A stretch of 64,000 nt of DNA, taken from assembly GCA_965207025.1 (NCBI GenBank), contig OZ242258.1, forward strand, positions 858,841 to 922,840, written 5' to 3'. This document shows positions 2,914 through 5,874 of the stretch, one piece after another. The notes beneath the pieces are model-generated. The model was not told where the DNA came from. It ran no database searches and saw only the letters and a list, made by a program, of their open reading frames with translations. The position numbers and the translations under genes were made by a program. This DNA is from Dehalococcoidia bacterium (lineage in GTDB: Bacteria > Chloroflexota > Dehalococcoidia > Lucifugimonadales > UBA3495). Each line of letters opens with the position of its first letter. Positions within the stretch are counted from its first letter, which is position 1.

Positions 2914-3552
2914 ATGGAGCATTGGCAGATGGCCATTCAACACGATGTGGTTTGGCAAAACTTCGCCGTAACAACCTCCGATCGCGCGAAACTGCTGAAG
3001 CAGACGCCCTTTGTTATATGGTTCACGGGGCTGTCCGGGGCCGGAAAAACCACGCTGGCTAATCTGGTTGCCAGGCAGTTGCATGATTTGCGATATCACG
3101 CCTACGTTTTGGATGGCGACAATCTGCGGCATGGACTGAATCGCGACTTGGGGTTTACCGTGGAGGACCGGCAGGAAAACGTCCGGCGCATGGCCGAGGT
3201 TGCCAGGTTGGTTTGTGACTCCGGGCTCATTGCTCTGGCGGCCTGCATCTCTCCCTTTGCGGCGGAACGGGAATTTGCCCGCAGCCTGTTTCCCGACGGA
3301 CGATTCATAGAGGTATTCGTGGATGCTCCCCTGGAACTCTGCGAGCAACGCGACAACAAGGGCCTATATCGAAGGGCAAGGGCCGGCGACATTACCGATT
3401 TCACCGGCATTGACTCTCCCTTTGAGCGCCCGGTGAATCCGGAACTGGTCATGGATACCGATCGCCGGACTCCGATTGAGTGTATGGACGAAATCATGGC
3501 CTACCTGGCGGACAGGGAACTCGTCGCCGACTGGACAGCGCCCCAACCGTAG
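2914..3552 (+). CDS. cysC: adenylyl-sulfate (APS) kinase
   Basis: P-loop FTGLSGAGKTTLA, a DGDNLRHGLN block, and a length of about 210 aa, all typical of CysC. Confidence 0.9.
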   Translation: MEHWQMAIQHDVVWQNFAVTTSDRAKLLKQTPFVIWFTGLSGAGKTTLANLVARQLHDLRYHAYVLDGDNLRHGLNRDLGFTVEDRQENVRRMAEVARLVCDSGLIALAACISPFAAEREFARSLFPDGRFIEVFVDAPLELCEQRDNKGLYRRARAGDITDFTGIDSPFERPVNPELVMDTDRRTPIECMDEIMAYLADRELVADWTAPQP

Positions 3553-3593
3553 GCTAGATTGTTTCGCATTCCCAATTGTCATCTGGATGCCAC

Positions 3594-4409
3594 ATGGTTG
3601 CCGAAACTATCACCCACACTGACCGCATCGCCGCTAAATTCGCGGTGGCTAAAGCCGAAGGACGCCCCGCGTTGTTGATGTTTGTGACCGTTGGTCATCC
3701 CTACCGCGATGCTGCTATGGATATCGTGCCTCACCTCGTTGCCGCCGGCGCCGACGCGATTGAGCTGGGGATCCCCTTCAGCGATCCCATCGGAGAAGGC
3801 CTCGTGATTCAGGAGTCAAGTTTTGCGGCGCTACAGAACGGCGTCACGCCGCAGGATTGTCTCGACACCGCCCGGGCCCTTCGTCCGTTGATCGGCGACA
3901 CTCCGCTGATACTAATTGGCTACTACAACAGTTTGATTTCCTACGGCTTACGGCGCTTCGCGGCGGCGTGCGCGGATGCTACGGTCGATGGCCTGATTAT
4001 TCACGATCTGCCCGTCGGAGAGGCCGGCTCGTTGGTTGAGGAACTGGCCCCATACGGTATTCACCTGATTCCGCTGCTGGCGCCCACCAGCACCGACGAA
4101 AGTATTGCGCAAGCAGCCGAAATCGGCGGCGGTTTCGTCTATTGCATCAGCGTAACCGGCGTGACGGGTGTCCGGTCCCAGGTATCGAGTGAAGGCTTGG
4201 ACCTGGCTAGCCGAGTTCGTCAACACAGCGATTTGCCAGTCGCCATCGGGTTCGGCATCTCCAGCCGTGAACACGTTCTCGATGTGGGCCGGCGGGCTGA
4301 TGGGGCCGCCGTGGGTAGCGTCCTCGTGCGCGCCATTGCCGACGGGCCGCCGGAAGGCGCAGCCGCCCGCGGCGCCCGCGTGGTGGCCGAACTTGCGGGC
4401 CGCGACTAG
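3594..4409 (+). CDS. trpA: tryptophan synthase alpha chain
   Basis: ELGIPFSDPIGEGLVIQ and GFGIS motifs. The ATG at 3594 was preferred over the TTG at 3576. No trpB is adjacent. Confidence 0.88.
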   Translation: MVAETITHTDRIAAKFAVAKAEGRPALLMFVTVGHPYRDAAMDIVPHLVAAGADAIELGIPFSDPIGEGLVIQESSFAALQNGVTPQDCLDTARALRPLIGDTPLILIGYYNSLISYGLRRFAAACADATVDGLIIHDLPVGEAGSLVEELAPYGIHLIPLLAPTSTDESIAQAAEIGGGFVYCISVTGVTGVRSQVSSEGLDLASRVRQHSDLPVAIGFGISSREHVLDVGRRADGAAVGSVLVRAIADGPPEGAAARGARVVAELAGRD

Positions 4410-4474
4410 CGGCGGCAGCGGCGCTACTATTTCGAGCGTATTGTCGGATTGCGCAAAAAAGCCGGTTAATCCCG

Positions 4475-4503
4475 TTGACAACGGCCCGGGGGCGGCGTAG
4501 GAT
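4475..4503 (+). promoter_or_regulatory. sigma70-type promoter (TTGACA-17-TAGGAT)
   Basis: TTGACA at 4475-4480, an exact 17-nt spacer, and TAGGAT at 4498-4503. The predicted transcription start is about 4510-4512, on the ATG of the leader ORF. Confidence 0.5.
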
Positions 4504-4511
4504 TTGCAACG

Positions 4512-4616
4512 ATGGTTTCCGCAAACACACGTATCCGCTTCGGGTATTACTGCCCGTTCTATTTTTACGCTTACCGCCGCTCGGTCAGCGTGAATCCGGC
4601 GTGTGAGGCCCGATAA
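4512..4616 (+). CDS. putative Tyr/Phe-rich leader peptide (34 aa) of DAHP synthase
   Basis: Translated by hand as MVSANTRIRFGYYCPFYFYAYRRSVSVNPACEAR with stop TAA at 4614-4616. Codons 10-21 hold 3 Phe and 5 Tyr. The ORF is below the ORF-track size cut-off. Confidence 0.5.
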   Translation: MVSANTRIRFGYYCPFYFYAYRRSVSVNPACEAR

Positions 4617-4636
4617 CCTTCGTGAAAACCACTAAG

Positions 4637-4675
4637 AAAGGACTTCAGCCGGAGCAAGGCTGAAGTCCTTTTTTC
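4637..4675 (+). terminator. intrinsic terminator / attenuator hairpin
   Basis: AAAGGACTTCAGCC (4637-4650) pairs perfectly with GGCTGAAGTCCTTT (4658-4671) around a 7-nt loop, followed by extra Ts to 4675. It lies 50 nt upstream of the DAHP synthase ATG. Confidence 0.75.
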
Positions 4676-4724
4676 ATTAACAACCCAGTTGGCGCTGTCA
4701 AGCCCACCCACGCAGGAGGACAAT

Positions 4725-5798
4725 ATGGCAATCTCACCGGCCAAGGACGTAAATGTGATGAGCAACAACGCGTTGATTCGACCATCGGAACTGGAAGCTC
4801 GGATTCCATTGAGTTCCACCGCTGAGCAGACCGTTCTGGAAGGACGCCGTCAACTCGAAGCGGTACTCAATCGTGAGGACGAGCGTTTCGCGGTGATCGT
4901 AGGACCTTGCTCGATCCACGATCACAAGACGGCGCTGGATTACGCGGAGCGTCTCAAGCCCCTGGCTGATCGCCTGAGCGATCGCATCATGCTCGTGATG
5001 CGGGTCTATTTTGAAAAGCCTCGCACCACCGTGGGCTGGAAGGGCCTGATCTACGATCCCAACCTCAACGACACCTACGAGATCGAGGATGGTTTGCACC
5101 GCGCTCGCAAGTTGCTCATGGAAATCTCCGAGGCCGGACTCTATTCCGCCACCGAGTTTCTCGACCCGATCGTCCCCCAGTACGTCGCCGACCTGGTGAC
5201 CTGGGCGGCCATCGGGGCCCGCACGACGGAGAGTCAGATTCACCGTCAGATGGCGTCCGGCTTGTCCATGCCGGTGGGATTCAAGAACGGCACCGACGGC
5301 GACCCTCAAACCGCCGTGGACGCCCTGGTTGCCGCTGCCACACCGCAGGCGTTCCTCGGCATTGACCATGAGGGGCAGGCATCCATCGTGGAGACGCGGG
5401 GCAACAAGAACTGTCACCTGGTGATGCGCGGCGGGCGCAGCGGCACCAACTTCGACGCCCGCTCCATCGCCGTTGCCGAGGACGCTCTGCGCAAGGCCAA
5501 CGCGCCCCTCAACGTAGTAGTCGATTGCAGCCACGGCAACTCCAACAAGGACCACACCCGCCAGCGTATCGCCTTCGAGGACGTGGTTAGCCAGCGGATG
5601 GGGGGAAACGACAACCTGGTTGGCGCAATGCTGGAAAGCAACATCAATGCCGGCGCCCAGAAACTCGGACCCGACCCCTCCACCCTGGAGTACGGCGTTT
5701 CGATCACCGATTCCTGTATTGCCTGGGATGAAACGGTGGACCTGCTCGATTGGGCGTACGACCGGTTGGGACGGGAAGCAGCGGTCGCGGCAAACTAG
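4725..5798 (+). CDS. aroG: 3-deoxy-7-phosphoheptulonate (DAHP) synthase, class I; isozyme specificity unknown
   Basis: KPRTTVGWKGLIYDP, GARTTESQ.HR and DCSHGNS blocks. SD AGGAGG at 4714-4719 precedes the ATG at 4725. Confidence 0.9.
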   Translation: MAISPAKDVNVMSNNALIRPSELEARIPLSSTAEQTVLEGRRQLEAVLNREDERFAVIVGPCSIHDHKTALDYAERLKPLADRLSDRIMLVMRVYFEKPRTTVGWKGLIYDPNLNDTYEIEDGLHRARKLLMEISEAGLYSATEFLDPIVPQYVADLVTWAAIGARTTESQIHRQMASGLSMPVGFKNGTDGDPQTAVDALVAAATPQAFLGIDHEGQASIVETRGNKNCHLVMRGGRSGTNFDARSIAVAEDALRKANAPLNVVVDCSHGNSNKDHTRQRIAFEDVVSQRMGGNDNLVGAMLESNINAGAQKLGPDPSTLEYGVSITDSCIAWDETVDLLDWAYDRLGREAAVAAN

Positions 5799-5844: not shown

Positions 5845-5874
5845 CGGGGCGGGTGCAGAGCCCGCCCCGTTTGC
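5845..5874 (+). terminator. intrinsic terminator after DAHP synthase
   Basis: CGGGGCGGG (5845-5853) pairs with CCCGCCCCG (5861-5869), followed by TTTG. Confidence 0.55.

Follow-up and report, generated by a model that had tools for sequence, protein, structure and literature searches.

Leader region of the DAHP synthase gene

The DNA analyzed here, referred to as the window, is a stretch of 64,000 nucleotides (nt) from the genome of a Dehalococcoidia bacterium of the phylum Chloroflexota (contig OZ242258.1), and this work concerns the short region in front of its gene for type I 3-deoxy-D-arabino-heptulosonate 7-phosphate (DAHP) synthase, which carries a candidate transcription attenuator. 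All elements of this region lie on the forward strand. A sigma-70-type promoter (TTGACA-17-TAGGAT, positions 4475 to 4503) matches the consensus at 10 of 12 positions, and 8 nt past the end of its −10 box an ATG at 4512 opens an open reading frame (ORF) of 34 codons that closes with TAA at 4614 to 4616 (4512 to 4616 in all) and encodes the peptide MVSANTRIRFGYYCPFYFYAYRRSVSVNPACEAR. Three Phe and five Tyr codons make up 8 of the 12 codons from 10 to 21, and the Tyr and Phe codons with a putative regulatory role span 4539 to 4574. The hairpin that starts 20 nt after the stop codon has a perfect core of 14 bp, in which AAAGGACTTCAGCC pairs with GGCTGAAGTCCTTT (4637 to 4650 with 4658 to 4671), and can be extended to 17 bp (4634 to 4674, −27.2 kcal/mol), in which form it overlaps a run of six T residues; it is rich in G+C and together with the T-run spans 4634 to 4680. 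Farther downstream come a strong Shine-Dalgarno sequence (AGGAGG, 4714 to 4719) and the ATG (4725) of the synthase gene (4725 to 5798), whose product of 357 amino acids matches the Pfam family DAHP_synth_1 (PF00793) with an E value of 2.5e-81; Shine-Dalgarno sequence and gene form the presumably regulated unit (4714 to 5798). The gene trpA (3576 to 4409; PF00290) lies directly upstream of the leader region on the same strand. A sequence-only reading of the window had called the promoter, the 34-codon ORF with its eight Phe or Tyr codons, the hairpin with its T-run, the Shine-Dalgarno sequence and start codon of the synthase, and trpA as the immediate upstream gene, and all of these calls held.

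Chance is excluded as the source of the aromatic run. Eight aromatic residues in 12 codons were seen in none of 5,000 dinucleotide-preserving shuffles of the 315-nt spacer between trpA and the synthase gene (4410 to 4724), and six in eight codons in only 7 of the same 5,000. In all six frames of the window, which has a G+C content of 61%, the leader holds the sole stop-free stretch with at least six aromatic residues in eight codons, and runs of this density were found upstream of DAHP synthase at 6 of 80 genome loci versus 11 of 1,982 control tiles. The leader RNA also folds more stably than all 200 of its shuffled versions (z = −4.2).

No Shine-Dalgarno sequence precedes the leader ORF, and the spacing between promoter and ATG leaves no room for one. 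Across the close relatives described below, the −10 box ends 7 to 10 nt before the leader ATG. This geometry, in which the distance is held in relatives, predicts that translation of the leader begins on a leaderless or near-leaderless mRNA, in agreement with the earlier suggestion that the leader ATG sits at the transcription start.

Alternative RNA structures

The leader RNA can be divided into four regions whose pairings are mutually exclusive. Region 1 (4540 to 4554), which takes in codons 10 to 15 (F-G-Y-Y-C-P) and overlaps the first Tyr codons, pairs with 4598 to 4613 to form a protector helix, 1:2 (−16.2 kcal/mol). This helix encloses a further hairpin, B (4564 to 4594, −14.4 kcal/mol), with a 5′ strand, TTACGCTTACCGC, that holds the codons for Tyr-Ala-Tyr-Arg. 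Region 2 (4595 to 4613; codons 29 to 34, up to the stop codon) is common to the protector and to the antiterminator, 2:3, and because it reaches the stop codon, it would be covered by a terminating ribosome. Region 3 (4634 to 4657) is the 5′ arm and loop of the terminator, and region 4 (4658 to 4680) is its 3′ arm with the T-run. In the antiterminator, 4595 to 4611 pairs with 4640 to 4653 (−16.1 kcal/mol) through three helices, UCCGGC (4595 to 4600) with GCCGGA (4648 to 4653), UGAGG (4604 to 4608) with CUUCA (4643 to 4647), and CC (4610 to 4611) with GG (4640 to 4641), and its 5′ strand ends 3 nt before the leader stop. Folded as a duplex, 4595 to 4611 and the 5′ arm of the terminator reach −18.7 kcal/mol.

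The antiterminator was found by folding the leader cut before the 3′ arm of the terminator, both for the window alone and as a consensus of ten relatives (RNAalifold), and the consensus independently predicts the antiterminator and hairpin B. With region 3 omitted, 7 of 10 relatives have the protector as their minimum-free-energy fold, in which it joins codons for Gly-Tyr-Tyr-Arg-Pro to region 2. The sequence-only reading had placed the antiterminator strand elsewhere, at GCGTGAATCC (4588 to 4597), but a pairing of −7.0 kcal/mol is weak and the TGAA core is free to vary among relatives, and we replace it with 4595 to 4611 paired to 4640 to 4653. The protector was absent from that reading. We also rejected an alternative protector that appears in the minimum-free-energy fold of the window, CACACG...CCG (4525 to 4537) with 4597 to 4605, a segment that is not conserved across relatives.

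In the window, region 1 has a local alternative, hairpin A (4541 to 4556, within the leader ORF), where the terminator scan also marks CGGGTATTACTGCCCG and the U-rich Phe and Tyr codons as terminator-like. Its 6-bp form is seen in the window alone, where TGC replaces the CGC of the relatives. Hairpin A may be a pause site or a mere by-product of U-rich aromatic codons.

Conservation in close relatives

The closest genome match is a sponge-associated Chloroflexi metagenome-assembled genome (MAG), VXOG01000028, with a DAHP synthase that is 92% identical. A protein search returned about 90 clusters at 82 to 93% synthase identity and a further group at 62 to 65%, and some of these entries carry the name of the sponge Geodia barretti; the surrounding DNA was obtained for eleven of the protein-search relatives. 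The leader ORF is present in every relative retrieved, and peptides were collected from 22 loci besides the window (23 with it). The analyses of conservation below use an alignment of 13 distinct close sequences from sponge Chloroflexi (DAHP synthase 82 to 93% identical), all of which keep the promoter, the ATG, the frame, the aromatic codons and the terminator. TTGACA is invariant, the −10 box reads TAnnnT in all 13, the ATG is present in all 13 and the leader ORF has no indels, while the sequence before the −35 box and that after the T-run are poorly conserved. The order trpA, leader, DAHP synthase, GNAT acetyltransferase and cytidylate-kinase-like gene is kept in nearly all close relatives retrieved.

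Within the ORF, 12 or 13 of the 13 sequences have an aromatic residue at each of codons 12, 13, 16, 17, 19 and 21, with alternation of TAT and TAC and of TTC and TTT, and codon 18 is aromatic in nine. Codons 12, 13, 16 and 17 change in nucleotides (TAT to TAC, TTC to TTT, Tyr to Phe or Tyr to Trp) and yet stay aromatic, a sign that their decoding by aromatic tRNAs is under selection. Tyr is found at codons 13, 19 and 21 in 12 or 13 sequences and at codons 12 and 17 in 11, while the Phe positions are more replaceable. Tyr and Phe had been proposed together as the signal that the leader senses; the conservation of aromatic codons bears this out, but the two do not share the signal evenly, and the conserved signal is mainly Tyr. 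Other parts of the ORF are conserved in a different way. TAC GCT TAC CGC (codons 19 to 22), CCG (codon 29) and most of codons 30 to 34 are fixed including their third positions, a pattern showing constraint at the RNA level, and codons 2 to 10 are essentially free to vary. The stop codon, TAA or TAG, stands at codon 35 in 12 of 13 sequences. An earlier in-frame stop occurs in four, at codon 31 in three of them and at codon 34 in the one that does not have the stop at codon 35.

The helices are conserved to a similar degree. In hairpin B, 93% of the alignment cells are paired; its 5′ strand is invariant including third codon positions, and its 3′ strand varies only to wobble-compatible bases even though the peptide that it encodes varies. 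The 13-nt segment GACTTCAGCCGGA (4641 to 4653), comprising terminator 5′ arm and the first three loop bases, is invariant in all 13 sequences, and these three loop bases pair in the antiterminator only. The core pairs of the terminator are kept in 100% of cases, and its 3′ arm changes only from A to G or from C to T, giving G-U pairs. An invariant 5′ arm facing a wobble-tolerant 3′ arm is what is expected of a strand that has two alternative partners. Pair compatibility across the 13 sequences is 88.5 to 90.5% for the three structure sets and drops to 22 to 48% when the partners are slid by 1 to 3 columns. For the protector alone, 86.8% of the cells are paired, compared to 30 to 41% in slid controls of the whole structure. 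One-sided changes in the helices are all wobble compatible.

The fixed third positions in TTACGCTTACCGC and in region 2 are also what might be seen if the leader RNA were read by a factor other than the ribosome (a metabolite riboswitch, a T-box-like tRNA sensor, or a TRAP- or PyrR-like protein) acting on the same terminator and antiterminator, with the ORF being incidental, and translation of the ORF is itself a prediction. We nevertheless regard such a factor as quite improbable. The choice of aromatic residues at codons whose nucleotides change speaks for decoding, the ATG, the frame and the position of the stop beside region 2 are conserved, and distant lineages with different RNA sequences keep only an aromatic ORF and the architecture. 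Moreover, an Rfam search (cmscan) of positions 4300 to 4800 at E values up to 10 gave only chance-level matches to unrelated models. The window leader matches none of the Rfam Trp, Phe, His, Thr and Leu leader families and no T-box or riboswitch, and the leaders of 15 related loci have no Rfam match at gathering scores.

The peptide itself could be the conserved entity, a functional Tyr-rich small protein or a precursor resembling ribosomally synthesized and posttranslationally modified peptides that lies upstream of DAHP synthase by chance, with the terminator simply ending its transcript. Its core, GYYRPFYFYAYR, and its C terminus, P(A/V)CEAR, are indeed well conserved in the close clade. 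However, the conserved nonaromatic residues coincide with the strands of the protector, hairpin B and the antiterminator and are fixed at the nucleotide level; those of GYYRP and P(A/V)CEAR owe their conservation to the RNA helices whose strands they encode. The frame closes early in four relatives, at codon 31 in three and at codon 34 in one, with no other change, the peptides of distant lineages have just the aromatic run in common, and neither in the window nor in the retrieved relatives are there modifying or export genes adjacent to the leader. We consider a functional peptide to be extremely unlikely.

Proposed mechanism

Leader peptides rich in the regulatory amino acid and located upstream of a terminator are the hallmark of attenuation of the trp, phe and his type. 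Taking conserved ORF, codons, terminator and antiterminator together with the recurrence in distant lineages, we find it very likely that the window element is a four-region ribosome-mediated transcription attenuator that ties the expression of DAHP synthase to charged Tyr-tRNA and, secondarily, Phe-tRNA. Comparison between genomes thus favors what the sequence-only reading had proposed, namely, control of DAHP synthase through the charging of Tyr- and Phe-tRNA.

In this mechanism, transcription from the promoter at 4475 to 4503 would begin at the leader ATG (4512) or no more than a few nucleotides away, so that the leader would be read from leaderless or nearly leaderless mRNA. When Tyr- and Phe-tRNAs are charged, the ribosome would get to the stop codon at 4614 and cover region 2 (4595 to 4613), the 3:4 terminator (4634 to 4674 plus the T-run) would form and transcription would end about 45 nt before the start of the synthase gene. 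When charged Tyr- or Phe-tRNA is scarce, the ribosome would stall within codons 12 to 21 and keep region 1 from region 2, and the free region 2 would capture region 3 (4640 to 4653) once this has been transcribed, blocking the terminator and allowing read-through into the synthase gene. RNA that is not translated, for example, read-through from trpA, would fold 1:2 first and terminate, making expression dependent on translation of the leader. Hairpin B, a plausible candidate for an RNA polymerase pause hairpin, probably pauses the polymerase and synchronizes it with the ribosome.

We modeled these states with a simple equilibrium folding in which the footprint of the ribosome is masked and which reports how likely the terminator 5′ arm is to be sequestered. 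In the window this probability is 0.69 with no ribosome, about 0.72 when a ribosome is stalled on the aromatic codons and 0.25 when it has reached the stop. In two of the distant relatives, L002 and L180, it is 0.10 to 0.16 with no ribosome, 0.58 to 0.93 with a ribosome on any aromatic codon and 0.11 to 0.18 at the stop, so that in the model these two leaders behave like a textbook attenuator.

Several points weigh against an attenuator of this kind. The equilibrium model of the window gives the antiterminator even without a ribosome (0.69), and termination of the untranslated RNA therefore hangs on the kinetic argument that 1:2 forms first. For the loci L003, L164, L171 and L175, the crude equilibrium model does not tell the stalled state from the stop state. 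Aligning the upstream regions of relatives, the check suggested by the earlier reading, brought out the conserved run of aromatic codons, but compensatory double changes are almost absent from the helices of the 13-sequence alignment. In the terminator, antiterminator and hairpin B, where strands barely vary, the sole double change is in the poorly aligned outermost pair of the terminator. One interior pair of 1:2 follows the series G-C, G-U, A-U, in sequences that are too conserved for covariation to be informative. Shuffle controls do not distinguish the helices from chance, given how little these vary within the close clade, and since covariation is uninformative, the structural argument is built on the pattern of conservation, the mutual exclusivity of the helices and the recurring architecture. 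Leaderless translation in this lineage is predicted from promoter geometry, and the source organism is an uncultivated symbiont known from metagenome assemblies only.

Leaders in distant lineages

Six more distant loci from Dehalococcoidia or other Chloroflexota (L002, L180, L176, L003, L177 and L005; DAHP synthase 57 to 65% identical) have leader and terminator sequences that differ from those of the window and a layout that is alike; in this range of identity, four distant lineages show such a layout with unrelated sequences. TTGACA precedes the leader ATG by 33 to 40 nt in five of the six loci, a terminator of hairpin and U-run is present in every one, and their aromatic-rich peptides, such as MRELPANRYFGYYFYRTDCEVVG and MRNATANSYYGYYYFSWATVVG and those containing MMISSHRFYGYYWLF, MSSTHTFGYWSYYYF and MIQNYFTYYYYF, share the aromatic run only. 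The best complement of the terminator 5′ arm falls on the leader stop or close to it, for example, at −7 to +9 in L002, L180 and L176, compared to −20 to −2 nt from the stop codon in the window group. In every lineage tested, it is within 35 nt of the leader stop, and in most, it overlaps or abuts it.

These loci also bear on a simpler account of the window, in which the hairpin and T-run are merely a terminator or insulator of trpA and the small ORF is a chance frame in the spacer. In its favor, trpA lies directly upstream on the same strand, and no other terminator-like site was seen between its stop (4409) and 4634. However, the hairpin is located 225 nt beyond the trpA stop and downstream of a conserved promoter, the aromatic run goes far beyond chance, and relatives keep the ORF and its aromatic codons, the latter with synonymous changes. 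The unit of leader and terminator also precedes DAHP synthase at L172, L176, L177 and L180, where the upstream gene is not trpA, as in the close relative L172, or is on the opposite strand. In L180, a relative with 62% identity, transposase genes (DDE_3 and DDE_Tnp_1; L180:1-936) are found directly upstream of the unit, indicating that the leader travels with the DAHP synthase gene and not with the upstream gene. The terminator may end read-through from trpA too, but this leaves the other features unexplained, and we give a plain trpA terminator very little credence.

Five further Dehalococcoidia loci (L035, L036 and L050; L010 and L012) have longer upstream ORFs with aromatic motifs (ending in YFGYSYTGGLFTYGLSYRS or in YRWTYICRRRA before the stop), and a canonical intrinsic terminator was looked for and found to be absent before their DAHP synthase genes. 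They may use a different mode of control, translational or Rho dependent, and aromatic upstream ORFs without a terminator suggest that nonterminator mechanisms probably exist in the phylum. By analogy, the leader ORF of the window could control DAHP synthase without a transcription switch, through a coupling of leader translation to Rho-dependent polarity or to mRNA stability. Unlike these five loci, the window has a strong canonical intrinsic terminator (T6, −27 kcal/mol) together with a conserved antiterminator that excludes it, and the Shine-Dalgarno sequence of its synthase gene lies 40 nt past the terminator in sequence that is neither conserved nor structured. Control without a switch is accordingly a reading that we hold to be highly improbable for the window.

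Relation to known leaders

The closest functional parallel is found in Corynebacterium glutamicum, where the leader peptide aroR, with the motif Phe-Tyr-Phe, attenuates the DAHP synthase gene aroF (Neshat et al. 2014, as summarized in PMC11802643 and PMC4046766; see also PMC3890552). In both systems, a leader containing Phe and Tyr codons precedes the gene for DAHP synthase, and in C. glutamicum, stalling of the ribosome at such codons is reported to raise enzyme gene transcription. C. glutamicum belongs to the Actinobacteria and the window element to the Chloroflexota, and whereas aroR has only Phe-Tyr-Phe and is reported to respond to Phe and not to Tyr, the window leader has seven to eight aromatic codons with Tyr being best conserved. 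Homology of the window leader to aroR, which is represented here by its Phe-Tyr-Phe motif alone, seems unlikely.

With the leaders of Escherichia coli (trpL, pheL of pheA, and pheST), the window element shares the four regions that form the protector 1:2, the antiterminator 2:3 and the terminator 3:4, the placement of the regulatory codons in or beside region 1 and of the stop beside region 2, and an energy ranking in which 1:2 and 2:3 are about equal and both are weaker than 3:4. It differs from them in several respects. It resembles no Rfam leader family in sequence or by covariance model, it has no Shine-Dalgarno sequence and a predicted leaderless 5′ end, it has the extra hairpin B inside the 1:2 loop, the codons in leaders of its type mix Tyr and Phe with an occasional Trp, and its target is DAHP synthase. 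In E. coli, DAHP synthase is controlled instead by the repressors TyrR and TrpR (PMC11802643). Leaderless leader peptides with mapped 5′ ends are known from Streptomyces lividans, in trpL1, leuL and ilvL (PMC8079986). As in the window, the ORF there stands at the transcription start (predicted in our case) and hairpins and a U-rich tract separate it from a gene for amino acid biosynthesis, while the leaderless start in the window is predicted from promoter geometry and the amino acids, genes and phylum differ.

A literature search found no attenuators of this sort in Chloroflexi and no DAHP synthase leaders outside Corynebacterium, with comparative genomics published in subscription journals being beyond its reach. 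The mechanism is already textbook knowledge and the conceptual advance is modest; what is new to Rfam is the lineage and the sequence family. For uncultivated, sponge-associated Chloroflexota, it supplies a concrete element through which aromatic amino acid synthesis would be regulated. In these bacteria, the charging of tRNA, mainly Tyr-tRNA, appears to set entry into the shikimate pathway, in place of the TyrR- or TrpR-type repressors used in E. coli. If true, this would also imply that transcription-translation coupling and translation of leaderless mRNA operate in these uncultivated bacteria.

Other leaders upstream of DAHP synthase

A metagenome contig search with the DAHP synthase protein, among whose listed matches identity was at most 57%, turned up a second and unrelated class of aromatic leaders upstream of type I DAHP synthase (L041, L055, L085, L111, L116, L118 and L128). 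Its hosts are Desulfobacterota-type MAGs and metagenome contigs, and its peptides end in GLPxxR, for example, VGHFFAGGYFWFWYYFYTGLLPGVR and the C-terminal part DFFWYYFFYGKGLPVLR. In most members, a conserved stem (about CAGGCAGAC with GGUCUGCCUG, encoding G-L-P) encloses the aromatic codons, and one or two hairpin plus U-run terminators follow the stem. Small ORFs rich in Phe, Tyr and Trp and followed by a terminator were also seen upstream of DAHP synthase in the gammaproteobacterial MAGs L067 and L069 (Pseudomonadales and TMED1) and in the unclassified contig L084, with peptides such as MKKFFYTYYYFRL and one ending in GFFWFGFYYFFEK. In most other proteobacterial loci of the set, an aromatic-rich upstream ORF was not seen.

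On balance, we lean toward the view that attenuation by leader peptides is a widespread and repeatedly arisen way of controlling DAHP synthase, with the window representing a Chloroflexota family that is leaderless, mainly Tyr sensing and marked by an [FY]-G-Y-[YW] core and with at least two unrelated classes existing elsewhere. If true, this type of control would be a common strategy and not a curiosity of Corynebacterium. The window element and the other DAHP synthase leader classes are missing from Rfam and as families could improve the annotation of MAGs.

Neighboring genes and features

Upstream of the leader region, trpA is isolated from other trp genes. Its own upstream neighbor is an APS kinase gene (2914 to 3552), which is preceded by a gene for an Rce1-like CAAX protease with a zinc ribbon (1567 to 2862). 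On the downstream side, the DAHP synthase gene has a terminator-like hairpin of its own (5845 to 5869), and in the related Chloroflexota contig L177 a cobalamin riboswitch (RF00174, 98 bits; L177:3166-3351) lies downstream of the DAHP synthase locus.

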